64,000 bases of DNA, from the NCBI GenBank assembly GCA_051313645.2, contig JBNRSN020000010.1, forward strand, positions 2,232,001 to 2,296,000, given 5' to 3'. The DNA is from Centroscyllium fabricii. Taxonomy: Eukaryota. Made by a program: the position numbers and the translations under genes. Under the pieces are notes generated by a model. The model had not been told where the DNA came from. It was given only the letters and a program-made list of their open reading frames with translations, and did no database searches. This document shows, in pieces, positions 17,497 through 54,118 of this stretch; positions within the stretch are counted from its first letter, which is position 1; each line of letters opens with the position of its first letter.

Positions 17497-17563
17497 GGTA
17501 TCTGCCGTGGCTCAGTTGGTATCACTCTTGCTGCGAGTCCAAGGTTCTCTGTGTTCTTGGAAC
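17497..17563 (+). mobile_element. 5' tRNA-like head of a SacSINE1-like DeuSINE, split by the LTR element
   Basis: GCCGTGGCTCAGTTGGT A-box; the element continues after the second GGAAC at 21738. Confidence 0.75.
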
Positions 17564-19140: not shown

Positions 19141-19269
19141 AGACCAGGTCTAAGAAGGTACACAAACTCTCTGAAGATAGTTCGGGTGACGAATCAGAAA
19201 ATTCAAATAGTGGAGAATGAGGTCTCGAAAGTCTCAAAGTCCACAATATGGTCAATTCCACAGACCGCA

Positions 19270-19580: not shown

Positions 19581-21162
19581 CTTACACATAGAGGGTGAGG
19601 AAAATGATGCAGCCATGTCAGACAGACTGGGTATACACCAGATGCATATTTCCCATCTGACTCAGGGGCTGCTGGAAGCCCGAGACCAAATTGAATTGTT
19701 GTGGACTGCACAAAGTGAGTGGGTTTATCAACACAACCGATCACACTTGAACGGAGCACTTCAGACAACTGAAGGAGAGACTTTGAGTGACATAGAAACA
19801 TAGAAACTAGGAGCAGGAGTAGGCCATTCGGCCCTTCGAGCCTGCTCCGCCATTCAATGAGATCATGGCTGATCATCCAAACCCAACACCCCGCCCCTGC
19901 CCTCTCCCCATATCCCTCGATCCCTATCGAGCCTGCACCGACACATATCCCACCCTATCCCCGTAACCCCACACATTTAATCCCCCTAACACTAAGGGTC
20001 AATTTATCATGGCCAATCAACCTAACCCGCACATCTCTGGACTGTGGGAGGAAACCGGAGCACCCGGAGGAAACCCACGCAGACACGGGGAGAATGTGCA
20101 AACTCCACACAGATAGTACCCGAGGCTGGATTTGAACCCGGGTCTCCAGTGCTGTGAGAAAACAGTGCTAACCGCTGTGCCACTGTGCCGCCGTGACATG
20201 ACCATGGGTGCCGTATTGGCTGAACCAAAAGATGACACGTTGCCTTATCGTGCTGGACTGAGTTACGCACCTCCATCACTGATATCGGCAAGCACCCCAG
20301 ACACACAAAAGGGCTGCAAGGACTTGGCTAACAATACTCAGAGCCCAGTAGTCGACTCTAAATCTGGGAAGAACGTTAATAAAAAGAAAGGTCTTCTAAA
20401 TAACAGTCCTGTGATTTCCTATAGGACTGCTGCTTCAGAAAGGTACTCAGTCCCTGATGGTGGCTCTACTTCAGAAATACTCAAACTTGAATTGAGCGAT
20501 AAGAATGATGTGCAGGACAAGGAGATCAGTTGTCTCCAGATTAGTTTCGAAGATCAAGAGAAATTTCTGCAAGCTGAGCTACAAACCTCCAAAGCTACAG
20601 TGGCCGCATTGCAGGACAGAAATGTGTCACTGGAGGAGATGCACCAGGATCGGGACAAAGAAATGGACCAACTTCAGACTCAGATACAGGAGTTGCGGGA
20701 AAATAACAAAGTACTGCAAGATTACGTGGATGAGGCCAAGGAACAAAATAAGGATCTTCAGACACAGTTGAGCTCCAAAGTAACTGACTATGAGAGCAAG
20801 TTGGAGCAGCTCTCCACCGACATGAAAGAAAAGTGCTTGGTTGCAATAGTCAAGCAGCAAGAGGCTGAAAATAACCTGCTAGCAGTGCAGAAACTTTTTA
20901 AACAGTCAATTGATGAGGTTGATGGACTTCAGGAGGATCTGGCTGTAATGGAGCAGTAGAAAGCGCTATTGTCGGAAGGTAAAGTTGAGGTTGAAATGAA
21001 ACTCGACTGCGTGAATGCTGAACTCGGGAGGTTGGGGTTTTGTTTGGGACAGCTGAGGAGCAAGGCCATCCGCAGTTGATGGACACCGAATGGTGAGGAA
21101 AATATGGCTAACAGATTGCCGATAAAAGCCGACCTCAAAAGCAAAGAATCAACACCATTATA
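19581..21162 (+). pseudogene. Unknown coiled-coil ORF in frame with the protease, interrupted by a SINE and two stops
   Basis: Removing 19794-20199 (SINE plus one TSD) joins ...GETLSD to MTMGAV... in frame; the E/Q/K/L-rich tract LQAELQTSKATVAALQDRNVSLEEM...LQEDLAVMEQ reads on past TAG 20957 to TAG 21160-21162. Confidence 0.7.
19794..20192 (-). mobile_element. HE1-like V-SINE, long-tail type, TSD GTGACAT
   Basis: Reverse complement of the 14554 element; GTGACAT at 19787-19793 and 20193-20199. Confidence 0.94.
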
Positions 21163-21738
21163 GAAAAACTAGAAATTGTTAAATGTAAAAATTGTTAACA
21201 ATGTTAGTGTTCAAGTGTATCGAGTTGATGTACCATGTTGTTAAGAAAGGTACCATGTGACGAAGATTGCAATGTGATAAATGTACGTTAACCATTGTTG
21301 TAATTATGTTATTTCGATTTAGATAAGTTAACATGGAACATTCGAGTTAAAAATATTGCTTGTATGCAAAATGTTATAATGAGTAGAATGGTGTCGAAAA
21401 TTGTTGTAAGAGACTAACTAGCACCGAACAATGTATGTAACAAAAGTTAACTGTTGTACCCCCTTGTGTACTTATCATCGTACCTGTACGATTGAAGTAA
21501 GAAAGGAGGAATGTTGTGTATGTGCCTTTAAGTTATTATACTGGGCACTACTTTATGTGGTGCCACAATACTGTAGTACTTTGGCCAACCACTAGTGTAT
21601 ATAAGTTCATGCGTGGAGCGATATGCTCAGTTTCAGTTACGTTCCATACTCTAATAGAAGAATAAATACCTCCTTGTTTTATACCTTGGAGTCTAGTCCG
21701 TTGTTATATGAGCCACATAGCATGGACTTAACAGGAAC

Positions 21739-22146
21739 CACTCCAGACATTTGAGCACAAAATGCAGGCCGAAAGTCCTCAGTATCTGGACTGAGCACGG
21801 GACTGTGGGAGTTACTGTCTCTTAAGATGAGGCTCAGTCAGCCCTCTCAGGTGGTGGTAAAAGCTCCCCCGGCCACTCTTTGAAGAAGAGCGGGGGGCGG
21901 GAGGGGCAGTTCCAGCCTATATCCTGGCTGATATTTATTCTTCACGCAACATCACTAAAAGAATACAGATAATCTTGTCATTATCTCATTGCTGTTTCTG
22001 GGAGCTTGCTCGCCATAAGTAGTTTGCCGTGTTTCCTACATTCCAACCGTGACTACAGTTTGATAGTAATAAAGTGGTAAAGGGCTCGGGGACAGCCTGA
22101 GTTCAGGAAAGGCGCTGTATAAATTCCAGTCTATTTCTTTCTTTCT
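21739..22146 (+). mobile_element. Body and tail of a SacSINE1-like DeuSINE
   Basis: CACTCCAGA..TTGAGCACAAAAT, GCCCTCTCAGGTGG..GTAAAAG, GAAGAAGAGC, TCATTATC.CATTGCTGTTT.TGGGAGCTTGCT, GTTTCCTACATT.CAAC.GTGACTACA, GAAAGGCGCT.TATAAAT and a (TTTC)n tail match the recalled dogfish SacSINE1 consensus. Confidence 0.82.
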
Positions 22147-22147
22147 A

Positions 22148-22933
22148 GGATGCATTTTGGAAGGACTAACAAGGCAAGGGAATACACAATGAATGCTAAG
22201 ACCCTAGGAAAGACAGAGGATCAGAAGGACCTTGCTGTGCATGTACACAGATCCCTGAAGGCAGCAGGACAGGTAGATAAGGTGGTTAAAAAGGCATATG
22301 GGATACTTGCCTTCATTAGCCGAGGCATAGAATATAAGAGCAGGGAGGTTATGATGGAGCTGTACAAAACGCTGGTAAGGCCACAGCTGGAGTACTGTGT
22401 GCAGTTCTGGTCGCCGCACTATAGGGGGATGTGATTGCTTTGGAGAGGGTGCAGAGGAGATTCACCAGGATGTTACCTGGGCTGGAGTGCTTCAGCTATG
22501 AAGAAAGACTGGACAGGCTGGGGTTGTTTTCCTAAGAGCAGAGAAGGCTGAGGGGGGACCTGATTGAGGTGTACAAAATTATGAGGGGCATAGATAGGGT
22601 GGATAGAAAGGAACTTTTCCCCTTACTGGAGGGGTCAATAACCAGGGGGCATAGTTTCGAGGTAAGGGGCAGGAGGTTTAGAGGGGATTTGAGGAAAACC
22701 TTTTTTCTCAGAGGGTGATTGGAATCTGGAACTCACTGCCTGAAAGGGTGGTAGAGGCAGGAACCCTCACAGCATTCAAGAAGCATTTAGATGAGCACTT
22801 GTAACGCCAAAGCATACAAGGCTACGGACCAAGTGCTGGAAAATGGGATTAGAATAGACAGGGCTTGATGGCCGGCGCGGACACGATGGGCCAAAGGGCC
22901 TCTTTATGTGCTGTCACTCTTTGACTCTATGAC
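22148..22933 (+). mobile_element. 5'-truncated CR1 LINE (3' end)
   Basis: MHFGRTNK...VRPQLEYCVQFWSPHYR; 3' end ACGATGGGCCAAAGGGCCT...GTGCTGT and GACTCTATGAC tail. Confidence 0.93.
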
Positions 22934-23529
22934 ACTGCTTGCCCTTAAAGAACACTCTACCATCCCAAGGGCGACATGTTCCGCAAACTAGCTGAAGGAT
23001 TCTTTCCCAAAATGGGGCTGCATTAAGCAGTCCTGGTGCCGGGAGTTGGAGAATCTGGGCCTAAGTAGGCCCGAGATTGGATTTGAACATGTGTCCTCAG
23101 TGCGAGCAGTTTCAGCACTGTGTTGAAAATTGTGCCGTTCTTTAAATTAGTGAACAGTTGTGGTTCATATATTCGGACTCCTTTAACCAAATTGTCCCCA
23201 GCTATTCTTTATAATGTGGAGATTTTCACTCATTTTGTATATATTTTATCGTAGATAAGTTTTACATTTTTTAAAAGTGTTTTTCTTTCATATGCAAAAA
23301 GTGAGGTGATTTAGTCCCAGGTGAGAGAGTCTCTCTTGGGCCTGGAGCATGAAGTGGAAACAGGACCGCCTGACAGATGTGTCACTTGCAATCCGTAATG
23401 ATGCAATCCTTGTTGATCAAGGGCTTTGCGCTGAATCACTGAGCAGAGCTAATCAGGCTTGACAGTGTTAACCATCTAGATGCCAAAGAACAGACACGTT
23501 GAAAGAATGAGAAAAGTCCTTAATGCCAA

Positions 23530-23789
23530 GAATCTATCCATCGACACACACTATCTTACTGTTAAGTCACACATTCTGTCCATATATACACTACTTTATA
23601 GTTAATACACACGTACACAGTCCATCTACAACTATATTATCGTTACTACGCACACTCTCTATCTATACACTATCTTACTGCTAATACACACACAGAGTGT
23701 TCATCTACACACTATCTTATTCTAAGTAGACACTCACTGTACATCAAAACACTATCTTACTGTTAATACCCACACTCTCTATCCGTCTA
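23530..23789 (+). repeat. Degenerate ~40-bp minisatellite (TCCATCTATACACTATCTTACTGTTAATACACACACTC-like)
   Basis: About six units; continues at 25675-25746; related tracts at about 27500-27770, 28780-29170 and 44220-44490. Confidence 0.8.
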
Positions 23790-25673
23790 TTTTCTTTATT
23801 AGCACCTGGAATGTGGGCATCACTGGCAAGGCCAGAATTTATTGCCCATCCCTAGTTGCCCTTGAGAAGATGGTGATGAGCCGCCTTCTTGAACCGCTGC
23901 AGTGCATGTGGTGAAGGTGCTCCCACAGTGCATGTTAGGGAGGGAGTACCGGAATTCTCACCCAGCGGCGATGAAGAATCGGCCGATATACTTCCAACTC
24001 AGGATGGTGCGTGACTTGGAGGTGGTGGTGTTCCCATGCACCTGCTGCCCCTTGTCCTTCTCGGTGGAAGAGGTCGGGGGTTTGGGAGATACTGCCAAAG
24101 AAGCCTTGGCGAGCTGCTGCAGTGCATCTTGTAGATGGTACACACTGCAGCCACGGTGGTGGAGGGAGTGAATGTTTAGGGTGCTGGCTGGGGTGCCAAT
24201 TGAATGGGCTGCTTTGTCCTGGATGATGTCGAGCTCCTTGAGTGTTGGTGCAGCTGCACTCATCCAGGCAAGTGGAGAGTATTCCCTCACACTCCTGACT
24301 TGTGCCTTGTAGATGGTGGAAAGGCTTTGGGGAGTCAGGAGGTGAGACACTCGCTGCAGAATTCCCAGCCTCTGGCCTGCTCTTGTTGCCACAGTATTTA
24401 CACGGCTGGTCCAGTTATGTTTCTGGTCAATGGTGATCCCCAGGTTGTTGATGGTGGGGGATTCGGCAATGTTAATGTGGTTGAATATCAAGGGGAGGTG
24501 GTTAGACTCTCTCTTGTTGGAGATGGTCATTGCCTGGCATTTGTGTGTCATGAATGTTACCTGCCACTTAGCAGACCAAGCCTGACTGCTGTCCAGATAT
24601 TGCTGCAGGTGGGCACGGATTGCTTCTTTATCTGAGGAGTTGCGAATGGAACTGAACACTGTGCAATCATCAGCAAACATCGCCATTTCTGACCTTATGA
24701 TGGAGGGAAGGTCATTGATGAAGCAGCTGAAGATGCTTAGGCCTAAGACACACAGCCCCAGGAAATCACTTAAGGAGTTCCTCAGGGCAGAGATGATTGG
24801 TCTCCAACAACCACAATCATCTTCCTTTGTGCGAGGTATGACTCCAGCCAGTGGAGAGTTTTCCCCCCTTATTCCCATTTACTTCAATTGTACTCGGGTT
24901 CCTTGATGCCACACTTGATCAAATGCTACCCTGATGTCAAGGGCAGTCACTCTCACCTCACCTCTGGAATTCAACTCTTTTGTTCATGTTAGGACCAAGG
25001 CTGTAATGAGGTCTGGAGCTGAGTGGTCCTGGCAGAACCCAAACTGAGCATCAGTGAGCAGGTTATTGGTGAGTAAGTGCCACTCGATAGCTCTGCCAAT
25101 GACATCTTCCATCAGTTTGCTGATGATTGAGTGTAGACTGATGAGGCGGTAATTGGCTGGATTGGATTTGTCCTCCATTTTGTGGAAAGGACATACCTGG
25201 GCAGTTTTCCACATTGTTAGATAGATGCCAGTGTCGTAGCTGTACTTGAACAGTTTGGCAAAAGGTACAGCTAGTTCTGGAGCACAAATCTTCAGCACGA
25301 TAGCCGGGATATTGTCAGTGCCCATAGGCTTTGCTGTATCCTTTGCTGTATCCAGTGCGCTCAGCCATTTCTTGATATCACATGGAGCGAATCGAATTGG
25401 CTGATGACGGGCTTCTGTGATGTTGGGGACAGGAGAAGGCTGATACGGATCATCCACTTGGCACTTCTGGTGTAAGATGGTTGCAAACCTTGCCTTTTAC
25501 ACTCATGTGCTGGGCTCCACCATCATGGAGGATGGGAATGTTGATGTAGCCGCTTCTTCCTCCAGTTAGTTGTTGAATGGTCCACCACCATTCAGGACTG
25601 GATGTGGCAGGACTGTAGAGCTTTGATCTGATCCGTTGATTGTAGAATCGCTTAGCTCTGTCTATAGCATGCT
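23790..25673 (-). mobile_element. Decayed LINE of the CR1/L2 group (distinct family), RT and 3' UTR
   Basis: NYRLISL, QFGFCQDHSAPDL, FINDLPS...MFADDCTV, YKAQVRSVREYSPLAW; 3' UTR with AATAAA followed by an A-rich end. Confidence 0.9.
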
Positions 25674-25746
25674 ATTTTACTCTTAATATAGACACACACT
25701 CCCTCCATCAATACACTATCTTACTTTTAGTACACACTATCCATCT

Positions 25747-26132
25747 TTCCTCTCTTCTTACTTCTTAGGCTTTCCCTTGGAACCGAGGATGACTTGCTTC
25801 CACACTAAAAACTAGTTCTAAGGCGACTAATGTGTCCGATGCGGGAGCGACAATTTCGGTCACAGGTGGGGCAGACGGTAGTTAAAGGGGCGGGTGGGTG
25901 GGGTGCTTGGGTTGACGTGCGCTCCTTCCACTGTTTGCGCTTGATTTCCGCTTGCTCCTGCCGAAGAGACTCCAGGTGTTCAGCACTTTCCCAGATGCTT
26001 CTCCTCCATTTTGTGTCTTCTTGCGATTCCCAGGTGTCAGTGGGGATGTTGCACTTTTTCAATGAGGCTCTGAGGGTGTCCTTGGACTGTTTCCTCTGCC
26101 CACCTGGGGTTCTCTTGCCCAAGGTGGACACA
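25747..26132 (-). mobile_element. 3' fragment of an RTE-clade LINE with probable TSD ATCCATCT
   Basis: GKRTPGGQRKQSKDTL...W...KWR...CPTCDRNCRSRIGHISRLRT (RTE C-terminal zinc-finger pattern); AAGAAG-type tail; ATCCATCT at 25739-25746 and 26133-26140. Confidence 0.85.
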
Positions 26133-26501
26133 ATCCATCTATACCCTACCTCCTTGTTAATGACCAATATAAGAACATGCATGTATAGATTATTAAATAG
26201 GATTAGCTAGTTTGTATAATATTGAGCAAAACACTTTATGGTTTGTTAGTTTAAAACACTTTAGGAAGACACACAGAGGGACTAGATGGGCTTTGCAGTA
26301 TACCAGGGCTGAGAGCGTGAAAGGACCTTTACATCACTGCTTGTCTTGTGTGTCATGTTCATATGACTCCAGTGTATATTAGGAATAAGCTCCTTTTGCA
26401 ATAGAGATATTTAGATATTAAACGTCAATGGTATATAGACTAAGGAACACTCATGAATGCAATTTGTGGAGTTTAATAAGCAATGTAAAACACACATGAT
26501 T

Positions 26502-26719
26502 TGTGATATAATAAACTAGCCTTATACATCAATAACTCTAAAGTAAAGTTTTAATCCACTATATTGTCACTATTTACAAAGGTGTGTTTTACCATACTTC
26601 CAATTGAAGCATTCCCCCCCATACTGAGCAGCTCCACTATTTATACTGTCTGGGCACAGGATGTGACATGTCCAGAGTTCACCATTCAACCTTCCCCCGG
26701 AAGTTGTTCAATATCACCA
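26502..26719 (-). mobile_element. Solo LTR related to 2175-2403
   Basis: Termini TGTGATAT...ATATCACCA; shares TATTTACA, GAAGCATT, TTTATACT, ACAGGA.GTGAC and CCGGAAGT...CAATATCA in order with the 2175 LTR; absent from the paralogous site at about 28220; no clean TSD. Confidence 0.7.
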
Positions 26720-26914
26720 GTCTGCATAACAAATGGTAGCGAAAACATTACCCTTAACAATCTTACATTTCAACAGCATATACGTGAAACATGATTACAC
26801 GAAGAAAAGATACAACACACTGGAGACCTTGGGAAACTTCAACCCAGTCTTGCTGAGGCTTGTGTAACCAGTCAAGGTGACACAATTTCGACCTCATGTA
26901 GGAGTCCTTAGTAT

Positions 26915-27307
26915 AGAAACATAGAAGATAGGAGCAGGAGTACGCCATTCGGCCCTTCGAGCCTGCTCCGCCATTCAATGAGATCATGGCTGATCATCCA
27001 AACCCAGCACCCTGTCCCTGCCTTTTCCCCACATCCCTCGATCCCTATCGAGCCTGCACTGACACATATCCCACCCTATCCCCGTAACCCCACATATTCA
27101 ATCCCCCTAACACTAAGGGTCAATTTATCATGGCCAATCAACCTAACCCACACATCTTTGGACTGTGGGAGGAAACCGGAGCACCCGAAGGAAACCCACG
27201 CAGACACGGGGAGAATGTGCAAACTCCACACAGATAGTACCCGAGGCTGGATTTGAACCCGGGTCTGTAGTGCTGTGAGGCAACAGTGCTAACCACTGTG
27301 CCACCGT
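26915..27307 (-). mobile_element. HE1-like V-SINE, long-tail type, TSD GTAT
   Basis: Same family; GTAT at 26911-26914 and 27308-27311; empty site at about 28444. Confidence 0.93.
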
Positions 27308-27841
27308 GTATGTGAGTATTGTACCAATAGATCATTTACACAGCATCGAAGGGCTGGTGTTTCTATTATCTCATTAACGTAAGTTAATAAACAGGATTAT
27401 CTCTGACAAATTCAGTGTTTCATAGTTCTAGAATTTGTATTATAAGTAAAGGATGTATCCTATAATAGCCACACAGAAGTGTGTAGGGAACTACAAAACA
27501 CAACCTCCCTGTTAATACCGAGATTGTATCTAACGATATGCTCTCTCCTTGTTAATACAGTCTCTATCCATCTATTCTATCCATCTGTACACTAGCATTC
27601 CATTAACATCAGACTCTTCCTATTTATACATGATTTATTTCCGTTTTATTATCAATCTATATAGTGCCTCCCTGGTCATATCCAGATTCCATCACTCTAT
27701 GCCTGGCCTCACCCTTCCTCCCTAGACACTATCTCTCAATACACAACCTCTCTGTTAATACCCAAATTGAGAATAGGAGTGAATTGTTCATTCAATAGAA
27801 TAAGCTAGTTTATAACTTATGGGATTATATAGTTTAAAAAA

Positions 27842-27963
27842 AATGTTCTTGGTATCTGGGAGTCGCTAGCATGACCAGCATTTATTGCCCTCCCTAGTTG
27901 CCCTGAGGAGGTGGTGGTGAGCCACCTTCTTGAACCACTGCAGAGCGTGTGGTGAAGGTTCTC
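27842..27963 (-). mobile_element. Short 3' fragment of the 23790-25673 LINE family
   Basis: ATTTATTGCCC.TCCCTAGTTGCCCT...GGTGAGCC.CCTTCTTGAACC.CTGCAG matches 23837-23920. Confidence 0.8.
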
Positions 27964-29395
27964 CTAATTGAGCAAATTACATTAGGTTGTTAGGTTCAAA
28001 ACCACTTCAGAGGGACACACCGAAGGACTAGACGGGCTTCTCAGTAGGGCAGGGCCAAGTGTGAGAAAGGACATTCTATCACTGTGTTGACTCCGGTGTA
28101 GATCGGGAATAAGCTCCTTTTGCATAAGGATGGTTAGAGATTGGACTTCAATGGTTCTCAGAACTAATGAACACTCATGTGCAGTGTCCGCAGTGTAATA
28201 AACAACCTAAAATAAGAATGTGTCTGCAAAACAAATGGTAGCAACAACCTCATGCCTAAAAGCAATGTTACATTTGAACATTACACACGGAGCATGATGT
28301 ACAGTACACATATTTTGCGTAAAGGATAAAACCAATAAAAAGATACAACACATTGAAGATCCTGGGCAACTACAACCTAGTCTTGCTGGGGCTGGCGTAA
28401 CCAGTCAAGACAACATGATGGCGGCCTTCGGTAGGAGCCCTTAGTATGTGAATATTGTATCCATAGCTCATTTACACTGCATGGAAGTGTTGGTGTTTTT
28501 ATTCTCATTGACTTGATTTAATAAACAGTATTAACACAGAACTTTTCAGTGTTTCCTGGACTTGCATTAGAGGGAAAGGATGGATGCCAATATCCTATAA
28601 TACCTCCACAAATAGCTAGAGAGATGGAGAGATACATCTTCTGTGAGGGTTTTATAGGAACTTCAACATAGTGCAAGCATTCAAGACAAAATGCTTGCAA
28701 CCTCCTGAAGGAGTCCTTGGTATGTGAGTATTGTACCTATAGCTCATATACACAGCATGGAACTTCAAACAGGCACTACCCATCTATTAACGACCTTTCT
28801 GTTAGTACCCAGATCATATCCATATATACACAGCCTCCTAGTTAATACTCACGCAGTATCCACCAATACAGTGCTGTCCTGTTAATGCCCAGATGCTGGT
28901 TATCCATATGCAAATGCAGTTTTAATACCAATACCCTATACATTTATGCAATAGAATCCCGGTTAATATCCAGACTCTGTCCATCTAGACACTATCTCTG
29001 TTGTAATACACATATTCTGTCTATCTATACACTATATTAATTTTAACACACTGTCCATCTATACAGTTTCTTACTGTTAGGACACACATACACACAAACA
29101 GTCCATCTATGCACTATCCAACTGTTAGTACACACACTCTATCCATCTATACTCTTCCTCCTTGTTAATGACCAATATAGGAATATACATGTATATCATA
29201 AAATAAAATCAGCTTGTTTTTATAATATTGAGCAAATTATTGATGGTTTGTTAGTTTAAAACACTTCAGAAAGTCACACAAAATGACCAGACGGGCTTTT
29301 CAGTATGGCAGGACCGAGTGTGAGAAAGGATTTTCCATCTCCAGTGTATATTAGGAATACGATCCTTTTTGCAAAACATGTTGTTAGAGATTGTA

Positions 29396-29710
29396 GCCTG
29401 TGGTACAGACAGCATCAAAAATGAAATGCTCAAGTACAGCACTCCGGCGATGCAGGACGCAGTGCTCAGGCTGTTCAACCTTATATTACATTCAGGCTAT
29501 TTTCCTGATATTTGGTGTCAAGGGCTTACTTTGCCCATTTATAAGAGCAGAAACAAATCAGACCCAAACAATTACCATGGTATCTGTGTCAGTAGTTGCT
29601 TAGGGAAGTTATTCTGCAGTATTATAAATAGCAAACATAATATCATCAGTAAAAACCAAATTGGCTTCCTTCTGAAACACTGCACCACTGACCATATCTA
29701 TACCCTTCAC
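29396..29710 (+). mobile_element. Internal RT N-terminal fragment of a non-LTR retrotransposon (RTE-X-like)
   Basis: ACGTDSIKNEMLK...LFNLIL..GYFPDIW...DPNNYHGICVSSCLGKLFCSIIN...QIGF...TTDHIYTLH; clade assignment is from recall. Confidence 0.75.
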
Positions 29711-30478
29711 TGCAGTAACTGTAAAGCAGGAAATCATATACACACTGAACAGAGTCAGTACAGTAAATGTATAGCAGGAACACATATATACAATGAACAG
29801 TGTCAGTACAATAGTATCGCAGGTATATAAATATTAACATGGAACATCGTCGCTGCATTAATTGGAAAGCAGGGAAACATATAAACACTGAACTGAGTCA
29901 GTGCAGTAACTGTACAGCAGGATTACAAATGTACATTGAGCAGAGTCGCCACAGTAACTGTAAAGCAGGAATACATATATACACTGAAAACATTCAGTGC
30001 AGTAACCAAAAACACGAATACATATATATTCTGAAGAGGTAATACAGTAACTGTACAGCAGAAATACTTTTATACACTGAAAAGACTCATTGAAATAACT
30101 GTACACAATATAAGTATTCATGGAACATAAACACTGCAGTAACTGTACACTAGGATTTCATATATACACTGAAAAATATCAGTGTAGCCACCATACAGCA
30201 GGCAGACATATATTTTGAATAGAATTAGTACAGTAACTGAACAGCAGGAACAATATATAGATATATACAGATATAGATATAGATATATATACTCGGAATA
30301 GTGTTACTACAGTCACTGTGCTACAGGAATACATATATATATATATATATATAAAAATGGAATAAAGTCAGTGCAGTAACTTTACAGCCAGAATATAAAT
30401 TTTCATGGAACATAAACAGCGCTGTAAATGTACGCTAGGAATACATATATACACTGAAAATATTCAGTACCGTAACTG

Positions 30479-32485
30479 TAAAAACAGATAGTAAGAGTTT
30501 CTATAGTTATATAAAAAGAAAAAGGGTGGCTCAAGTAAATGTTGGTACCCTAGAGGATGAGACCGGGAAATTAATGGTGGGAAATATGGAGATGGCAAAA
30601 ACACTGAATGAATATTTTGTATCAGTCTTTACACTAGAGGACACTAAGAATATCCCAACACTGGACACACGGAGGTCTATAGAGGGGTAGGAGCTAAACA
30701 CAATCAAAATCACTAAGGAAGTGGTACTCGGTAAATTAATGGGGCTCAAGTTGGATAAATCACCTGGACCTGATGGCTTACATCCTAGGGTCTTGAGCGA
30801 AGTGGTGCTAGGCATTGTGGATGCATTGGTAATAATTTTCCAAAACTCCCTGGACTCAGCAAAAGTCCCGGCAGACGGGAAAACTGTGAATGTAACACCC
30901 TTATTTTAAAAAGGCATTAGACAGAAGGCTGGAAATTATAGACCGGTTAGCCTAATGTCTGTTGTGGGTAAAATTTTGGAGTCCGTTATTAAGGAGACAG
31001 TAACAGGACATTTAGATAAACTTAATTTAATAGGACAAAGTCAGCATGATTTTACGAAGGGGACGTCTTGTTTGACAAATTTGTTGGAGTTCTTTAGGGA
31101 AGTAACATAGGGTGGATAAAGGGGAACCAGTGGGCATAGTATATCCAGACATTGAAATGGCATTTGACAAGTTGCCACACAAGATTACTGCTTAAAATAA
31201 AAAATCACGGAATTGGGGGTAATATTCTGGCATGGATAGAGGATTAGCCATCTAACAGAAAACAGCGAGTTGGGATAAATGGGTCATTCTCAGACTGGCA
31301 ATGGGTAACTAGTGGTGTTCCGCAGGGGTCAGTGCAGGGTCCCCAACTCTTTACAATTTATATTAATGATTTGGAGGAGGGGACCGAGTGTAACATATCA
31401 AAGTTTGCAGATGATACTAAGATGGGAGGGAAAGTGGTGAATGAGGAGGACATAAATAACCTGCAGGGTGACAGACAGGCTAAGTCAGTGGGCAGAGATT
31501 TGGCAGATGGAGTACAATACTGGAAAGTGTGAGGTTATGCATTTTGGCATGAAAAATCGTAGAGCTGATTATTATCTAATGGCAAGAAATGGAAAAGTAC
31601 TGTAATACAAAGGGATCTGGGGGTCCTGGTGCACGAAAATCAAAAGGTTAGTATGCAGGTGCAGCAAGTAATTAAGAAGGCCAATGGAATGTTGGCTTTC
31701 ATTGCTAGTGGGATAGAATATAAAAATAGAGGTATTGCTTCAGTTGTACAAGGTATTGTTGAGACCGCACCAGGAATACTGCATCCAGTTTTGGTGTCCA
31801 TACTTAAGAAAGGACATACTCATGGACACACTTGCTCTCGAGTCGGTACAAATAAGGTTCACTCGGTTAATCCACGGGATGAGGGTTTGGACATATGAGG
31901 AGAGGTTGAGTAGATTGGGACTCTACTCATTGGAGTTCAGAAGAATGAGAGGATATCTTATTGAAACATATAAGATTGTGAAGGGTTTGGATCGGGTGGA
32001 TGCAGGGAAGATGTTCCCAATGATGGATGAAACTAGAACTAGGGGGCATAAACTTAGAATAAGGGGCTGCTCTTTCAAAACTGAGATGAGGAGAAACTAC
32101 TTCACTCAGAGGGTGGTAGGTCCATGGAACATGCTGCCTCAAAAAGCTGTAGAAGCTACTTCATTACATAAATTTAAAACAGAAATAGACAGTTTCCCAG
32201 TAGTAAAAGGGATTAAAGGTTACGGGGAGCGGGCAGAAATTTGGACATGAGTCTAGCTTCAGATCAGTCTTGACCATATGGGTAGTGGAGTGGGCCCAGG
32301 GACCATGTAGCCTGATCCTGCTCCTATTTTGTGTGTCGAATTCTGTTAGATGCAGGAGATGCTTCTGTGATAGTAGGTTGGTTGTTAGGATCAGTACAGC
32401 CATGATCTTATTGCACGGCGGGACGGGCTCGAAGGGCTGATTGGCCTACTCCTGCTCCTATTTCTTATGTTCTTATGTTCTTATG
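30479..32485 (+). mobile_element. Decayed CR1 LINE (copy B, duplicate of 7303-9312)
   Basis: Identical 5' and 3' junctions with the satellite and shared lesions (GAAGTAACATAGGGTGG frameshift, 12-bp duplication giving KDIL(T/M)DTLALE). Confidence 0.95.
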
Positions 32486-33781
32486 GATACACATATACAC
32501 TGGACAGAGTCAGTACATTAAATGCACAGTAGGAATACATGTATAAGGAATATAAATAATAACGGAACATAGTCACAGCATTAACTGTAAAGCAGAGATA
32601 TAAATATACACTGAACAGAGTCAGTGCAGCAACTATACAGCAGGAATTCCTATATACACTGAATAGATTTAGTACAGTAACTGTACAGCAGGAAAAATAT
32701 ATATACACTGAATAGTGTCATTACAATAACTGCACAGCAGGAAAACATATATTAGCTGAATAGAGTCAGTGCAATAATGGGCAAAATGGATATAAATATA
32801 CACGGAATATAGTCACTGCCATAACTGTAAAGCAAACAACATATATACACTGAACAGAGTCAGTGCAGTAACTGTACAAAATTATTATAAATATACAGAG
32901 AACATATTCGCTGCAGTAACCTTACAGCAGGAATACATATATATTCTGAATAGAGTTAGTACAATAACTGTACAGAAGAAATATAAATATACAAGTAACA
33001 TCATTACTGCAGTAACTAAAGAAATAATACATATATACACGGAGCAGTCACTACAGTAACTGTAAATCAGCAATGCATATACACACTGAATAGAGTCAGG
33101 CCAGCAACTGAACAGCTGGAAGACATATATACATGGAACAGAGTCAGTGCATTAATGGACAAAATGGATATAAATATACACGTAATGTAGTCACTGCCGT
33201 AACTGTAAAGCAGGGATACATATAAACACTGACAGAGTCAGTGCAGTAACTGTACTGGAGGGTTAGAAATGTACATTGAGCAGAGTCGCTACAGTAACTA
33301 TAAAGCAGGAATACATATATTCACTGAAAACATTCAGTGCAGTAACAAAACAGCAAGAAGATATATATATTCTGAATAGAGTTAATACAGTAACTGTACA
33401 GCAGGAAAACTTATATATACACACACTAAATAGAATCATTACAATAAATGTAGATTAGGAATATAAATATACACTGAACAGAGACAATACAGTAACTGTA
33501 CAGCAGGAACACATATACTCTGAATAGATTTAGTACAGTCACTGTACTACAGCAATACATATATACACAGTATAGAGTCAGTACAGTAACTGTACAGCAG
33601 GAATATAAATATACACTGAAACGATTCAGTGCTGCAACCACACAGCAGGAAGGCATATATATTCTAAATAGATTTATTACAGTAACTGTACAGTATCAAC
33701 ACATACACTGAACAGAGTGGTAAAGTAACTGTACAGTATGAACACAAACTGAACAGTCAGGACAATAACTGTACAGCAGGA

Positions 33782-33817
<36 letters not shown>

Positions 33818-36800
33818 GGATCATAGTCGCTGCAGTTACGGCATAGCAGGAACACAGAAACACTGAAAAGAGACAATACAGTAACTGTACAGTAGGAAGA
33901 AATATATACACTGAACAGAGTCAGTGCATTAATTGTACAAAAGGGATATAAATATACACGGAACATAGTCACTGCCGTAACTTTAAAGCAGGAAATCATA
34001 TATACACTGAATAGAGTTAGGACAGTAACTGTACAGCATGAGTACATATATACACTGAACAGAGTCATTACACAATGAACACACTCAATATAATAAATGT
34101 AGAGTAGGAACATAAATATACACTGAACAGGGTCAGTACATTAATTTTACAAAAGGGATATAAATATACACGGAACCGAGTTGCTGCTGTAAAAGTATTG
34201 CAGGAAATCATGTATACACTGACCTGAGTCAGTACAGTAACTGTACAGCAGGAACACATACACTGAAAACATTCAGTGCATTAATTGTACAGTAGGTACT
34301 CATATATACTCTGAATAAAATCAGTGCAGTAACAAAGCAGAAACACAGATATGCACTGAAAATATTCAGTGAACTAACCATACAGCAGGAATACATATAC
34401 ACTGAACAGAGTCAGTGAAGTAACTGTGCAGCAGGAATACAAATGTACACAAAGCAGAGTCGCTACAGTAACTGTAAAGCAGGAATACATATATACACTG
34501 AAAACATTCAGTGCAGTAACCAAACAGCAGGAAGACATATATATTCTGAATAGAGTTAATACAGTAACTGTACAGCAGGAACAAATATACATAAACTGAA
34601 TATAGTACCGTTACTGTGCAGTAGGAATACATATACTGAACAGAGTCAGTGGATTAACTGTACAAAAGGAATATAAATATACACAGAACATATTCACTGC
34701 TGTAAATGTAAAACAGGAATACCTATATACACTGAACCGAGTCAGTACAGTAACTGAACAGCAGAAATACTTATCTACCCTGAACAGACTTATTGCCATA
34801 ACTGTACATAATATAAATATTCATGGAACATAAACGCTGCATTAACTATACACTAGGAATACATATATATACTGAAAAAATCATTGTATCAACAATACAG
34901 CAGGAAGACATATATTCTGAATAGAGTTAGTACAGTAACTGTACAGCAGGAAAACTATTATATATGCACTAAATAGAATCATTACAATAACTGTACAGCA
35001 GGAATATTAATACACACATATCATAGTCACTGCATTAACTGTAAAGCAGGATATCATATATACACTGAACAGAGTCAAGACAGTGACTCTACAGCAGGAA
35101 CACATATACTCAAAATAATGTTAGTACAATAACTTTACAGGATGAATACATATATACACTGAACAGAGTCAGTTAAGTTACTGTACAAGAGGAATATAAA
35201 TATTCATGTGACCTAAACACTGCGGTAATTGTAGATTAGGAATACATACATACACTGAACAGAGTCAGTGCAGTAATTGAACAGCAGGAACACAAATATA
35301 CACTGAATATAATCATTACAATAAATGTACATTAGTAATATAAATATAAACTGAACAGAGTCAGTACAATAAATGAAGAGTAGGAATATAAATATACAAT
35401 GTACAGTGTCAGTACAATAACCGTACAGCAGGTATATAATTATACACGGAACATCGCTGCATTAATTGTAAAGCAGCGATACATATATACACTGAACTGA
35501 GTCAGTGCAGTAACTGTGCAGCAGGATTACAAATGGACATTGAGCAGAGTCGCTACAGTAACTGTAAAGCAGGAAATCATATATACACTGAACAGAGTCA
35601 TTACAATAACTGTGCAGCAGGAACACATATAGACTGAAAATATTTAGTGTGGTGACTGTACAGCAGGATCACGTATATACTCAGAATAATGTTAGTACAG
35701 TAACTTTACAAGATGAATACATATATACACTGAACAGAGTCAGTTAAGTTACTGTACAAGAGGAATATAAATATTCATGGGACCAAAACACTGCAATAAC
35801 TGTAGATTAGGAATACATACATTTACTGCATTGACTCTGTTCAGTGTATGTACAGCAGGAACACAAATATACACTGAAAAGATGCATTGCATTAACCGTA
35901 CAGCAGGAATACATATATACTCTGAATAGTTTTAGTACAGTAACTATACAGCAGGAATACATATATACACACTGAACTGTGTCATTGCAATAAATGTACA
36001 TTACTAATATAAATATACACTGAACAGAGTCAGTGCCATACATGCAGAGTAGGAATAGAATACACTGAACAGTGTCAGTACAATAACGGTATAGCAGGTA
36101 TATAATATACTGGGAACATCGTCACTGATGTAACTGTAAACCCGGAATATCTATATATACTGAACCGAGTCAGTACAGTAACTGAACAGCAGGAATACTT
36201 ATGTACACTTAACAGACTCATTGCAATAACTGTACAAAGTAATATAAGTATTCATGGTACATAAACGCTGTGGTAAATGTACACTCGGAATAAATATATA
36301 CACTGAAACAATTCAGTGCAGCAACCACACAGCAGGAAGACATATATATTTTGAATAGAGTTAGTACAGTAACTGTACAGCAGAAAAACATATATACACT
36401 GAATAGAATCATTACAATAAGTGTACATCATGAATATAATTATACACAGATCATAGTCAGTGCAGTAACTGTAAAGCAGGAAATCAAATATACGCTGAAC
36501 AGAGTCAGTACAGTAACTGCACAAAAGGAATATAAATATACATTTAAACGATTCAGTGCTGCAACCATACAGCAGGAAGACATATATACTCTGAATAGAG
36601 TTAGTACAGTAACAGTACAGCAGGAACACATATATAAACTGAACAGAGTCAGGACAATAACTTTACAGCAGGAAAAAAAAAATAAAAAAAAAAATATTTA
36701 TATATAGATCATAGTCACTGCAGTTACTGTAAAGCAGGAACACATACTGAAATTAGTTAATACAGTAACTGCACAGTGGGAATACATATATACATTGAAC

Positions 36801-36964
36801 ATAGTCAGTGCATCAATTGTACAAAAGGGATATAAATATGCACGGAACATTGTCACTGACGTAACTGTAAAGCAGGAAATCATATATACATTGAACTGAG
36901 TCAGCACAGTAACTGTACAGCAGGAACACATAGACTGAATAGCATTAGTACAGTAACTGTACAG

Positions 36965-37008
<44 letters not shown>

Positions 37009-37543
37009 TGAACAGAGTGATGTAAATGTACAAAAGGAATATAAATATACACTGAGCATTGTCAGTGCAGTAATTTTAAAGTAGTAATATATGTATAGAC
37101 TGAACATTGTCAGAGCAATAACTGTACAGGAGGAACACATATATACACTGAACAGAGTCAGTGTAGTAAATGTACAGAAGGAACAAATGTATATGGTGAA
37201 ATGATTCAGTGCAGCAACCATAAAGCACGAAGACAGATATACTCTGAATATAAATAGTACAGTAACAGTACAGCAGGAAAACATATATACACTGAACAGA
37301 GTCATTACAATAAATGTACATTAGTAATATAAATATACACTGAACAGTGTCAGTACAATAACGGTATAGCATGTATATAAATATACACAGAACATAGTCA
37401 CTCCATCAATTTTAAAGCAGGGATACATATATAGTCTGAATAGAGTTAGTACAGTAACTTACAGCAGGAACACATATATACACTGAACAGAATCAGGACA
37501 ATAACTGTACAGCAGCAATATATATATGTACACGGAACATAGT

Positions 37544-37843
37544 TGTGATAAACCACTGTTTCCCACTGTTTCTTATTGTATATACTCACCCCGTTTGTAT
37601 CTATGTAATCGTACCTAATGCCATGTTGTACATAACCTGTTATACGATTACCGGGACATGCCCAGGCTGGCTCCGCCCGCGACTCCTCCCTCCCAGGATG
37701 GGGTATATAAATGGCCGTCTCCCATCCCCCGGCCATACCTGGGGACAGTCGACTAGCTGGTGCGTGTCCCACCATTTAGTTAATAAAAGCCGCATTGTTT
37801 CTCTTTCTAACTACTCGTCCATGAGGTCATTATTTCGGTCACA
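37544..37843 (+). mobile_element. Solo LTR (300 bp) with 5-bp TSD ATAGT
   Basis: TGTGA...TCACA termini, TATAAA 37706-37711, AATAAA 37782-37787, ATAGT at 37539-37543 and 37844-37848. Confidence 0.92.
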
Positions 37844-38015
37844 ATAGTCACTGCCATAACTGTAAAGTAGGAAATCATATATACTTCTGAACAGACTCAG
37901 TACAGTAAACGTACAGCAGGAACAAATGTATACACTGAAAAGATTCAGTGCAGCAACCATGGAGCGGGAAGACATATGTACTCTGAATAGAGTTAGTACA
38001 GTAACTGTACCGCAG

Positions 38016-38070
<55 letters not shown>

Positions 38071-38858
38071 GTGAACAGAGTCAGTACAATAAATGTACAT
38101 TAGTAATATAAATATAAATAGAACAGTGTCAGTATAATAGTGTAGGAATAAAAATATACACTGAAAATAGTCGCTGCATTAATGTTAAAGCAGGGATAAA
38201 TATATACAATGAACAGAGTCAGTGCAGTAATTGTACAAAAGGGATATAAATATACAAGGAACATAGTCACTGCTGTAACTGTATTGCAGGAAATCATATA
38301 TACACTGAACAGAGTCAGTACAGTATCTGTACAGCAAGAACACATATATACACTGAAAATATTCAGTGCAGTAACCATACAGCAGGAATACATATATACT
38401 CTGAATAGTGTCAGTATAGTAACTATACAGCAGGAATATAAATATAAATTGAACATTAACGCCGCAGTAACTGTACAGGAGGAATACATTTATACACTGA
38501 ACAGAGTCATCCAGTAACTGAACAGCAGGAACACATAGAAACTGAAAAGATTCAGTGCAGTAACCATACAGCAGGAATACATATATACTGGGAATAGTGT
38601 TAGTACTGTCACTGTACAGCAGGAATACATATATACACTGAACAGAGTCAGTGCAGTATCTGTGCAGCAGGATTACAAGTGTACATTGAGCAGAGTCGCT
38701 ACAGTAACCGTAAAGCAGGAAATCATATACACACTGAAAACATTCAGTGCAGTAACCAAACAGCAGGAAGACATATATATTCTGAATAGAGTTGATACAG
38801 TAACTTTACAGCAGGAAAAAAATATACATAAACTGAATATAGTACCGTTACGAAGTAG

Positions 38859-38891
<33 letters not shown>

Positions 38892-41800
38892 AATATATAG
38901 GAATATATATATATATATATATATACTGAACAGAGTCAGTGTATTAACTGTACAAAAGGTATATAAATATACACAGAACATATTCACTGCTGTAAGTGTA
39001 AACCAGGAATATCTATATACACTGAACCGAGTGGGTACAGTAACTGAACAGCAGAAATACTTATCTACACTGAACAGACTCATTGCCGTAACTGTACACA
39101 AGTAATATAAATATTCATGGAACATAAACGCTGCATTAACTATACACTAGGAATACATATATATACTGGAAAAAACCAGTGTATCAATCATACAGCAGGA
39201 AGACATATATTCTGAATAGAGTTAGTACAGTAACTGTACAGCAGGAAAACTATTATATATACACTAAATAGAATCATTACAATAACTGTACATCAGGAAT
39301 ATAAATATACACTGAACAGAGTCATTACAATAACTGTATAGCAGGAATATAAATATATACGGATAATAGTCACTGCAGTAACTGTAAAGCAGGATATCAT
39401 ATATACACTGAACAGAGACAATACAGTGATTGTACAGCAGGAACACATATATACTCAGAATAATGTTAGTACAATAACTTTACAGGATGAATACATATAT
39501 ACACTGAACAGAGTCAGTTAAGTTACTGTCCAAGAGGAATATAAATATTCATGGGACCTAAACACTGCGGTAACTGTAGATTAGGAATACATACATACAC
39601 TGAACAGAGTTAATGCGGTAATTGAACAGCAGGAACACAAATATATACTGAAAAGATTCATTGCATTAACCATACAGCAGGAATACATATATACACTGAA
39701 CAGAGTCAGTGCAGTAACTGTACAACAGGAATAGTTATATATTCTGAATAGAGTAATTACAATAAATGTACACTAGTAATATAAATATACACTGAACAGA
39801 GTCAGTACAATAAATGTAGAGTAGGAATATAAATATACACTGAACAGTGTCAGTACAATAACGGTATAGCAGGTGTATAAATATACACGGAACATCGCTG
39901 CATTAATTGTAAAGCAGAGATACATTTATACACTGAACAGAGTGCGTGCAGTATCTGTGCAGCAGGATTACCAATGTACATTGAGCAGAGTCGCTACAGT
40001 AACTGTAAAGCAGGAAATCATATACACTGAACAGAGTCATTACAATAACTGTACAGCAGGAACACATATATACTCAGAATAATGTTAGTACAATAACTTT
40101 ACAGGATGAATACATATATACACTGAACAGAGTCAGTTAAGTTACTGTACAAGAGGAATATAAATATTCATGGGACCTAAACACTGCGGTAACTGTAGAT
40201 TAGGAATACATACATACACGGAACAGACTCAATGCAGTAATTGAACAGCAGGAACACAAATATACACTGAAAGATGCATTGCATTAACCGTACAGCAGGA
40301 ATACATATATACTCTGAATTGTTTTAGTACAGTGACTGTACAGCAGGAATACATATATATACACTGGACAGTGTCATTGCAATAAATGTACATTAATATA
40401 AATATACACTGAACAGTGTCAGTACAATAACGGTATAGCAGGTATATAATATACTGGGAACATCGTCACTGCTGTAACTGTAAACCCGGAATATCTATAT
40501 ATACTGAACCGTGTCAGTGCAGTAACTGAACAGCAGGAATACTTATATACACTTAACAGACTCATTGCAATAACTGTACAAAGTAATTTAAGTATTCATG
40601 GTATATAAACGCTGTGGTAACTGTACACTAGGAATAAATATATACACAAACAATTCAGTGCAGCAACCACACAGCAGGAAGACATATATTTTGAATAGAG
40701 TTAGTACAGTAACTGTACAGCAGGAAAACATATATACACTGAATAGAATCATTACAATAAGTGTACATCATGAATATAATTATACACAGATCATAGTCAG
40801 TGCAGTAACTGTAAAGCAGGAAATCAAATATACACTGAACAGAGTCAGTACAGTAACTGCACAAAAGGAATATAAATATACATTTAAACGATTCAGTGCT
40901 GCAACCATACAGCAGGAAGACATATATACACTGATCAGAGTCAGGACAATAACTTTACAGCAGGAATATATAGATAGATCATAGTCACTGCAGTTACTGT
41001 AAAGCAGGAACACATACTGTAAATAGTCAATACAGTAACTGTACAGTGGGAATACATATATACATTGAACATAGTCAGTGCATCAATTGTACAAAAGGGA
41101 TATAAATATGCACGGAACATAGTCACTGCCGTAACTGTAAAGCAGGAAATCATATATACATTGAACTGAGTCAGCACAGTAACTGTACAGCAGGAACACA
41201 TATAGACTGAATAGCATTAGTACAGTAACTGTACAGGAATATATATATATATATAATATATATAATGAACAGAGGGCAGTAAATGTACAAAAGGAATATA
41301 AATATACACTGAGCATTGTCAGTGCAGTAATTTTAAAGTAATAATATATGTATAGACTGAACAGAGTCAGAGCAATAACTGTACAGGAGGAACACATATA
41401 TACACTGAACAGAGTCAGTGTAGTAAATGTACAGAAGGAACAAATGTATATTGTGAAACGATTCAGTGCAGCAGCCATAAAGCAGGAAGACAGATATACT
41501 CTGAATAGAGTTAGTACAGTAACAGTACAGCAGGAAAACATATATACACTGAACAGAGTCATTACATTAAATGTACATTAGTAATATAAATATACACTGA
41601 ACAGTGTCAGTACAATAACGGTACAGCAGGTGTATAAATATACATGGAACATAGTCACTCCATCAATTTTAAAGCAGGGATACATATATAGTCTGAATAG
41701 AGTTAGTACAGTAACTTACAGCAGGAACACATATATACACTGCAGAGAGTCAGGACAATAACTGTACAGCAGCAATATATATATGTACACGGAACAGTCA

Positions 41801-43188
41801 CTGCCGTAACTGTAAAGTAGGAAATCATATATACTCTGAACAGAGTCAGTACAGTAAATGTACAGCAGGAACAAATGTATAAACCAAAAAGTTTCAGTGC
41901 AGCAACCATGGATCGGGAAGACATTTATACTCTGAATGGAGTTAGTACAGTAACTGTACAGCAGGAATATATATATGCAGTGAACAGAGTCATTACAATA
42001 AATGTACATTAGTAATATAAATATAAACTGAACAGTGTCAGTATAATAATAGTGTAGGAATAAAAATATACACTGAAAATAGTCGCTGCATTAATGTTAA
42101 AGCAGGGATAAATATATACAATGAACAGAGTCAGTGCAGTAATTGTACAAAAGGGATATAAATATACAAGGAACATAGTCACTGTTGTAACTGTATTGCA
42201 GGAAATCATATATACACTGAACAGAGTAAGTACAGTAACTGTGCAGCAAGAACACATATATACACTGAAAATATTCAGTGCAGTAACCGTACAGCAGGAA
42301 TACATATATATTTGGAATAGTGTTAGTAGAGTCACTGTACTACAGGAATACATATATACTCTGAATAGTGTCAGTATAGTAACTATACAGCAGGAATATA
42401 AATATAAATTGAACATTAACGCCGCAGTAACTGTACAGGAGGAATACATTTATACACTGAACAGAGTCAATCCAGTAACTGAACAGCAGGAACACATATA
42501 GAAACTGAAAAGATTCAGTGCAGTAACCACACAGCAGAAATACATAAATATTCTGAATAGAGATAGTCTAGTAACTGTAGAGTATAAACACATATATACA
42601 CTGAACAGAGTCAGGACAATAACTGTACAGCAGGAATATGTATGTATATATATATATAACAGATCATAGTCACTGCAGTAACTGTAAAGCAGGAACACAG
42701 ATATACTCAACAGAGTCAGTGTAGTAACTGTACAGCAGGAATAGTTATATACACTGAATAGAGTCATTACAATAAATGTACATTAGTAATATAAATACAC
42801 TGAACAGTGTCAGTACAATAAATGTAGAGTAGGAATATAAATATACAATGTACAGTGTCAGTACAATAACGGTATAGCAGGTATATAAATAGACACAGAA
42901 TATCGCTGCATTAATTGTAAAGCAGAGATACATTTATACACTGAACAGAGTCAGTGAAGTAACTGTGCAGCAGGATTACAAATGTATATTGAGCAGACTA
43001 ACTGTAAAGCAGGAATACATATACACACTGAAAACATTCAGTGCAGTAACCAAACAGCAGGATTACATATATACTCTGAATAGAGTTAATGCAGTAACTG
43101 TACAGCAGTAACAAATACATATAGACTGAATAGAATCAGTACAGTTACTGTACAGTAGGAATACTTACATATACTGAACAGAGTCAGT

Positions 43189-43335
43189 NNNNNNNNNNNN
43201 NNNNNNNNNNNNNNNNNNNNNNNNNNNNNNNNNNNNNNNNNNNNNNNNNNNNNNNNNNNNNNNNNNNNNNNNNNNNNNNNNNNNNNNNNNNNNNNNNNNN
43301 NNNNNNNNNNNNNNNNNNNNNNNNNNNNNNNNNNN
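43189..43335. other. Assembly gap (147 N) inside the satellite
   Basis: Run of N flanked by satellite on both sides. Confidence 1.
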
Positions 43336-43699
43336 CAGTTACTGTAAAGGAAGAACACACATATACACTGAGCAGAGTCAATACAGTAACTGTACAGTAG
43401 GAATACATATACATGTGAGCTGGGATGGAGCTCAGAAAGTCCTGAATCTGTGAAAGACTGGAGAAGTATATTTTACTGTATTTATTTATTTATTAGAGAG
43501 TTTAAGTTAACAATAATTTAAATTTATTAATTTTAAAGTAGTTTGAAGAAAACCAGAATTTAAATCTGGCTTTAAAAAGGGGCGGGACTTATTGTGGCGT
43601 GCATGGAGGGCTGGCGAGATTTTGGTAAGTGGGAGAGTTCGGGCAAGTGGGAGGTGAAGGGGTGCTTCCCTGTTTTGTTTCTGTCCGCAATCTTAGGTT

Positions 43700-52910: not shown

Positions 52911-54118
52911 ATAATTAAAAAAGTCATTAAGGAATCCAATAAATAAGTCAGGAGGAACATCATTACCAAGAGAGTGCTTAGAATGGGGAATGCACCACCA
53001 CTTGGAGTAGTTGAGGCGAATAGCACAGATGCGATAAAAGTGAAGCCAGATAAACACTGATAGAAAGGAACAGAAAGATATGCAAATAGGGCGAGATGAA
53101 GTAAGGTGGGAGCAGGTTCATTCGGAACATAAGCATCGACACACACCCGTTGGGCTGAATGTCCTGTTTCTGTCCGGTTTGTGCTGGAAATTATTTGTAA
53201 TTCTATGTAATACAGCTGATTAAAATTGTGTCCATTAAAACCAGTCTTGTGTTTATTCATCTAATATTCTAATCGCCTATTATTACATAGATTGACACGT
53301 CCACCTCTTCATTCATTTGCCATATATCCGACAATCCACTAATCTGTGAATCATCTGTCCCACTATTCACCCTCCATCCAACCAACCCATGTTCCTTCTA
53401 TTCATTAAAGATCCATTCATACATAAATCCACCTGGTTACCATCAATCTTCTGTGAATCGATACAGTCAACCATTCATTCAACCTTCCAAACATCTGAGC
53501 ACCAATCAACCCTACATCCATCCAATTATCTACCTATCCACCCAATTTCCGTCAGCCCATGCATTGGTCTATCCTTATATCCATTCTTCTGATCATATTA
53601 GTCCATCACCATTCCAAAGCCATGCATCTCCATGGAACTGACAATCCATGTTTCCGTAGGACCATCCACTCAACCTTTCATCCAGCTTTTCTTGATGTTG
53701 TTCCATCTTCCAAACTTCCACTTATCGAGTATTCATTCAATCCACTCATTGAACAATAGTTCCTTAAACCCAGTGCCTATTGAGACATGCATCTCCACTC
53801 CCTCGTTAATTTATCAGCCTTTGGTACATCTATCCATTCATTCATTCATTCAAGGATCCACCCTACGGCCATCCGTTCACTCAGTCTTCCCTCCATCACT
53901 TCAACTGTCAATCGACCCATTCAATAATCTAATCATCCATATAATCAATGTAACTATCGTGCCATCCATCCAATAACCAGTCCTTCAATCATTCCTCCAA
54001 TATTCCATCTGGTCATCCATTCACTTTACTTGCCAACCGTTTATCAATCCAATCTTCCTTGCTCACCTGTTCAATCAACCACCTTTCCACACTTAACCCT
54101 TCAATCCGTCCCTAACCC

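Follow-up and report, generated by a model that had tools for sequence, protein, structure and literature searches.

The window analysed here, a 64,000-nucleotide stretch of the Centroscyllium fabricii genome (contig JBNRSN020000010.1, positions 2,232,001 to 2,296,000, forward strand), contains a duplicated array segment in which the same ATAGT target is occupied by a SINE in one copy (A) and by a solo LTR in the other (B), with a shift of 0 at both edges. This coincidence, described in the initial annotation, is borne out letter for letter, and all three copies of the monomer, including a third copy (C), are altered at ATAGT. We consider it likely that two independent and ordinary insertions occurred at an empty site mildly preferred by the integrase, and that copy C lost 2 bp by slippage. 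In other words, the exact overlap is probably luck raised a few-fold by sequence preference, a real but chance coincidence.

The site belongs to a degenerate 48-bp tandem repeat that forms two blocks in the window, at 3391-16686 and 29707-43398. Duplication units A (7110-16685) and B (30277-39603), both on the plus strand and with approximate ends, represent a ~9-kb duplication that is about 2.5% diverged (substitutions 2.3-3.0%) and includes a LINE fragment common to both units. A partial third paralog, C (40400-42800, plus strand, ends approximate), contains a ~600-bp island of raised divergence around the site. The only other genomic place of the repeat found by DNA and pattern searches, which give lower bounds, is C2:3.588-3.665 Mb; the array is therefore a local minisatellite and not a genome-wide satellite, and its first description as a duplicated satellite has to be revised. 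Unequal exchange between two haplotypes may have produced the A/B duplication. A coding role of the 48-bp (16-codon) repeat was rejected, since the arrays hold no ORF longer than 206 aa. Between the end of A and the array leading into B lies a 13-kb block of mixed repeats (16686-29706), bounded by two different dispersed elements. Further along the window, positions 53000-64000 show a strong C-over-G strand skew, down to -0.74, across ~11 kb of degenerate short repeats.

The flanks of the site are true paralogs. Copies A and B are identical at 1458 of 1497 and 1640 of 1684 aligned bases on the two sides (97.4%), and the identity of A and C amounts to 95.5% on the left and 94.1% on the right. 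Homology extends over more than 1.5 kb on each side and is paralogous rather than orthologous. Branch lengths over 2,084 columns are 1.06% for A, 1.20% for B and 2.02% for C. Genome-wide, the exact right-flank pattern has three occurrences (A, B and C) and the intact left pattern two (A and B), so the assembly holds no empty intact copy matching those exact patterns. Neither C nor the older paralog at C2 has an insert at the site.

The occupant of copy A is a full-length tRNA-headed SINE of 401 bp (14554-14954, plus strand; the tail may run to 14956), placed between ATAGT repeats at 14549-14553 and 14955-14959. It carries a Pol III A box (14565-14575) and B box (14609-14619), and its 3' part (14866-14951) ends in (TTTCTATG)n and shares 83% identity over 88 bp (E 2e-21) with the 3' end of the LINE fragment at 7307-9311. 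The boxes, the LINE-shared 3' end and the high copy number all point to a tRNA-derived SINE mobilised by a LINE. We take the element to resemble the V-SINE superfamily. Such elements have a highly conserved V domain in their body, for which a length of ~120 bp is reported (PMC6887750). An Rfam scan returned nothing relevant. The first two bases of the right-hand repeat, AT, also fit the (TTTCTATG)n tail (microhomology); the true target duplication of the SINE is thus 3-5 bp.

Forty of the 4902 SINE candidates in the genome were scored. Apparent duplications range from 0 to 8 bp in the 32 full-length copies that passed the end filters, and ten of these have a duplication of at least 3 bp, in every case overlapping the tail by 1-3 bases. 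An apparent duplication of exactly 5 bp is found at the focal SINE only (0 of 31 other copies), which begins at the usual first base of the family and has an intact tail. Seven private substitutions in 401 bp (1.75%), set against a duplication age of 1.1-1.5% per lineage, give a Poisson likelihood ratio of 2.5-6 for a SINE older than the duplication, although the private changes may include source variants unsampled among the 40 scored copies. A sub-source for these changes was considered and rejected: the 273/283 pair recurs in five other copies, together with none of the other seven scored positions. An allelic twin was likewise discarded, as the 97.5% match (L034) sits in a LINE, outside the 48-mer.

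Copy B carries a 300-bp solo LTR (37544-37843, plus strand) that ends in TGTGA..TCACA and lies between ATAGT repeats at 37539-37543 and 37844-37848. The duplicated ATAGT originally assigned to both elements stands; the element spans first proposed had taken in both target repeats and are narrowed here. A TATA-like motif (37704-37710) and an AATAAA (37782-37787) are present, both on the plus strand, and the first 22 bases of the LTR occur 6,063 times in the genome, its first 13 bases 15,140 times. Related elements encode a protease near the 5' LTR (L003) and an integrase core before the purine-rich tract at the 3' LTR (L002), and motifs for RT and RNase H were picked out by eye. Because LTRs of these relatives flank protease/integrase elements, the family is of Ty3/Gypsy type, and the TG..CA ends, the family-length duplication and the gypsy order of the relatives characterise the focal element as a putative Ty3/Gypsy solo LTR. 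Duplications of 5 bp accompany all six paired LTR elements and four of six other solo candidates, the remaining two being one base off. The LTR has two private changes in 300 bp, both CpG, corresponding to a likelihood ratio of 2.4-5 for insertion after the duplication. An LTR older than C, with excision footprints, was ruled out on account of this young age. Homology between SINE and LTR as a driver of replacement was also set aside, only chance matches of 9-13 bp being found.

Several features of the LTR family were recorded in passing. Some LTRs are inserted in the integrase region of what appears to be their own family (L016, L017 and L150), and L017 is a 1.4-kb remnant with two LTRs. In L003, L005, L008 and others, the A/T-rich stretch that comes after the 5' LTR contains no recognisable tRNA primer-binding site; the gag frame begins ~25 bases on.

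The third copy of the monomer (41785-41800, plus strand) has no insert and reads GGAACAGTC at 41791-41799, which agrees with the earlier description of an empty paralog missing 2 bp of the target. Deletions of 2 bp starting at phases 22-25 were found in 19 of 770 monomer hits, which are partly non-independent, and are the commonest deletion scored, with indels in (AT)n runs under-counted. Copy C is therefore ordinary in this respect.

The involvement of different machineries, also suggested previously, agrees with the anatomy of both inserts, each being the canonical product of one pathway. The LTR has the TG..CA ends and the family 5-bp duplication expected from an integrase, and the SINE is full length, with a LINE-type tail and a 2-bp overlap of tail and target, as in target-primed reverse transcription (TPRT). 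The history would have begun with duplication of the array segment, visible as the ~2.5% distance between A and B. A LINE endonuclease and reverse transcriptase presumably then placed the SINE into A by TPRT at a time near the A/B split, the tail pairing with the AT of the target. Later, a Gypsy integrase cutting with a 5-bp stagger would have inserted an element into B at a site that matches its motif, and recombination between its two LTRs may have left the solo LTR. Copy C would have lost its dinucleotide, probably by slippage, at a monomer position where such deletions are frequent.

The preference of the integrase was derived from 63 host half-sites (31 left and 32 right), with element-internal flanks excluded. 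The LTR target prefers G/A at -3 (p 5e-7) and T/A at -2 (p 1e-5), and the focal site fits the resulting (G/A)(T/A)N-5-N(A/T)(C/T) pattern on both sides. It ranks among the top 2-7% of unit positions for this motif, a 3-6.5x enrichment, and an LTR insertion into the unit would land on it with a chance of 3.5-7e-4. Multiplying this value by an estimated ~0.1-0.3 for a match of the SINE edges, and allowing one copy-specific element per unit, gives a per-pair chance of ~5e-5 to 2e-4, which rises to as much as 1e-3 when one edge may be shifted by 1 nt. The view that a single duplicate pair is unlikely to show such an exact coincidence is confirmed. On the assumption that 1-5% of the genome lies in comparable duplicates, 0.2-4 such cases are expected genome-wide, and a repeat-rich genome of 7.2 Gb could give one such coincidence.

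Neither family shows a wider attraction to the repeat. None of 29 other LTR loci and none of 29 other SINE loci lies inside the 48-mer, so that satellite targeting by either family was rejected, and neither places most of its copies at one repeat position, as target-specific retroelements do. Four other AACATAGTCAC monomers of unit B carry no insert. The two arrays hold 16 insertions, counting one of each duplicated pair, at phases 4-47 of the monomer (good to about +-2). There is one same-phase pair, the focal one, against 2.5 expected, and four insertions fall at phases 22-28 against 2.3 expected (p 0.20), a count that would decrease further since the insertion labelled 19.4k is probably near phase 47 rather than 25. 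The proposed enrichment of insertions at this monomer position is consequently not seen in the arrays, and a monomer-position hotspot was rejected. In the related array, two elements of another LTR family (C2:3591167-3611001 and 3635243-3644502, spans of 19.8 and 9.2 kb; L094-L099) occupy different monomers, each within an (AT)n run and bearing an ATAT duplication of 4 bp, which suggests an AT-run preference.

Associations between the two families were also assessed genome-wide. An LTR of this family adjoins the SINE head at three loci (gaps of 3, 11 and 12) against ~1.3 expected, none of them at the 5-bp offset, and an LTR starts within 12 bp after a (TTTCTATG)n tail at seven loci against 2.5-3.9 expected (p 0.01-0.10). 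There is no genome-wide habit of this LTR sitting in a fixed register at SINE borders. A mild excess of the LTR in or just after the (TTTCTATG)n tails of SINEs and LINEs was noted (L146-L154), several of them lying inside the tail microsatellite.

Several observations nevertheless weigh against two independent insertions. These include the small per-pair chance, the apparent duplication of exactly 5 bp absent from the 31 other SINE copies, the seven LTR starts after (TTTCTATG)n tails, a SINE age at or above that of the duplication, the clustering of differences between C and the other two copies, and the alteration of all three copies.

The last of these points would speak for a local hot site, in which the DNA shape or chromatin of one monomer would expose the five bases to LINE endonuclease, integrase and slippage alike, for instance through a bend or non-B DNA beside an alternating purine-pyrimidine tract. 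Such a tract, 17 nt long, lies 4 bp upstream of the target (37518-37534 in B, strand not applicable) and is the same in A and C; it is the 7th longest of 78 in the unit (top 9% by length). Structural-variant breakpoints of cartilaginous fishes are reported to be modestly (2.2-fold) enriched in alternating purine-pyrimidine 5-mers and Z-DNA motifs (bioRxiv 10.64898/2026.06.26.733778), which would favour a hot site, as would a loose end in public run X8. There, one contig departs 1-2 bp before the site (at 41794) into 10 letters that are neither SINE nor LTR, possibly by chance and possibly as another junction. However, six longer or equal tracts of the unit have no insert, monomer positions are not enriched for insertions, and in the older paralog at C2:3.59 Mb, which has a long (AT)n tract, the site is intact. 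We regard a hot site as rather unlikely. The related suggestion of a fragile site is not supported: both inserts are canonical products of their own enzymes, these act on opposite strands at either edge of the 5 bp, so no single fragile bond is common to both, position enrichment is lacking and the deletion in C is commonplace. Unusual accessibility survives in a weak form only, as the top 2-7% rank for the integrase motif and the neighbouring 17-nt tract. Cutting at a cryptic recombination signal at the ATAGT/CAC boundary was dropped by eye, similar heptamers being present in most monomers.

The age and divergence data bear on a different possibility, namely a priming of the second insertion by the first. 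The SINE would have come first and its loop would have drawn the integrase; if it was present before the duplication, it would then have been lost from B by short-tract conversion from the empty C. The SINE age at or above that of the duplication and the younger LTR are consistent with this order. Moreover, an island of ~600 bp (about 41450-42050) shows ~4% divergence of C from A and B, compared with 1.1% in its flanks, and holds 11 changes derived in A and B, 13 derived in C and two unresolved. Within +-300 bp of the site lie 24 of the 42 differences, a clustering reached in none of 5,000 simulations, and an island centred on the site is of the type that a conversion-blocking insert would leave. 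Positions at which C can be told from B begin only beyond 40 bp to either side, so that a short tract of conversion would go unseen. Bent DNA is a favoured target of integrases. With a SINE about as old as the duplication and an island centred on the site, priming of the sister site by the earlier insert is conceivable. On the other side, the counts are small, the private changes of the SINE may be unsampled source variants, the centring reaches p ~0.09 only, and the island is explained equally well by chance mosaicism of an array undergoing conversion. Precise loss of retroposons is rare, put at 0.003% in whales (PMC10531181), and no precedent was found in the literature searched. Taken as a whole, this course of events appears unlikely. 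Its most specific version, in which filled and empty paralogs or alleles pair and the ~400-nt SINE loop kinks the empty strand at the target and so attracts an unrelated integrase, must be called a long shot, and its extension to small repair deletions drawn to the same spot is just as tenuous.

A single staggered break at ATAGT, patched by SINE cDNA in A, LTR cDNA in B and end joining with a 2-bp loss in C, would account for the same five bases in all three copies, yet it is highly improbable. The staggers of integrase and TPRT have opposite polarity and different bonds are cut, so one pre-existing break does not explain both inserts, and the events are of different ages. Truncation, lost termini and the lack of a clean duplication would be expected of captured cDNA. 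Both inserts are instead whole with clean ends, the LTR with exact TG..CA termini and its 5-bp family duplication, the SINE with its usual start and intact tail. Given these canonical products and the commonplace deletion in C, the idea of replacement during break repair is not supported.

The assembly itself was compared with contigs from public runs. The 2-bp-short junction of C is bridged by contigs in X7 and X9, which derive from one sample, and is nearly bridged in X8, where a loose end whose first nine letters agree in sequence and register with the SINE tail (window 14935-14943) would represent the SINE 3' junction. In runs X1 and X2 nothing spanned the site, and the contig matches listed, which were dominated by the LTR family, did not include the LTR junctions. 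The letters of C at 41743 and 41745 are in no contig of four runs, the contigs showing the A/B letters followed by the 2-bp-short junction; this mismatch (41743-41749) may be due to a polymorphism, to mosaic contigs or to a local error of the assembly. A mis-assembly, or a tandem placement of two haplotypes as A and B, is hardly credible: the missing LTR junctions, the unmatched letters of C and a run of 147 N at the array end (43189-43335, gap or masking being indistinguishable) speak for it, but A and B differ by 2.5% with different neighbours on both sides, the C junction is bridged and the SINE junction hinted at, an error would not make perfect terminal dinucleotides and duplications, and allelism would leave the coincidence standing anyway.

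Parallels to the preferred reading, two independent insertions, are found in other vertebrates. In toothed whales, different retroposons at the same position with a duplication shift of 0-1 nt have been reported, with 35 cases in cetaceans ascribed to chance and target preference (PMC10531181). The present pair resembles these non-homoplasious precise parallel insertions in having different element types at one position. The whale cases, as described there, are SINE/SINE pairs made by one LINE-1 endonuclease at orthologous loci of different species, whereas here TPRT and an integrase, with no common enzyme, acted on paralogs of one genome. Similarly, AluY and SVA occupy the same site in BTK (Conley 2005, tabulated in PMC4859970). 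They too are two independent, different elements at one site, but according to that table they share the L1 endonuclease and its consensus site and are disease-ascertained, neither of which applies here. The independence of the shark pair is tempered by the SINE dating given above and its small counts.

Each half of the event has its own counterpart. Drosophila LTR retrotransposons have family-specific duplication lengths and a palindromic motif that extends past the duplication by as much as 3 bp (PMC3276498), the same reach as the -3/-2 positions here; the motifs reported there concern preference within a family and do not deal with a site used by a SINE as well. For zebrafish ZfL2-1, a non-L1 LINE, a second-strand cut ~5 bp downstream that gives a 3' overhang and ~5-bp duplications is described (PMC4245944), which matches the short duplication of the SINE in A. 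ZfL2-1 is a different LINE, and the duplications of the SINE family here range over 0-8 bp, with exactly 5 in 1 of 32. No cross-class case and no heteroduplex-guided mechanism was found in the mainly open-access literature searched. The locus is best read as a cross-class precise parallel insertion, by TPRT and integrase, in paralogs of one genome; the documented cases involve a shared endonuclease.

As a lone coincidence, the finding adds one more precise parallel insertion, unusual only in its pairing of TPRT with an integrase. If cross-class overlaps were to exceed what the motif predicts, site choice would be shaped by something that both enzymes see, such as DNA shape, chromatin or the heteroduplex loops that form where an insertion is already polymorphic. 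Were the loop account true, sites of element presence/absence would be hotspots for insertion across families. An excess of cross-class overlaps is directly testable in haplotype-resolved vertebrate assemblies and, if true, would matter wherever the presence or absence of retroposons serves as a nearly homoplasy-free marker.
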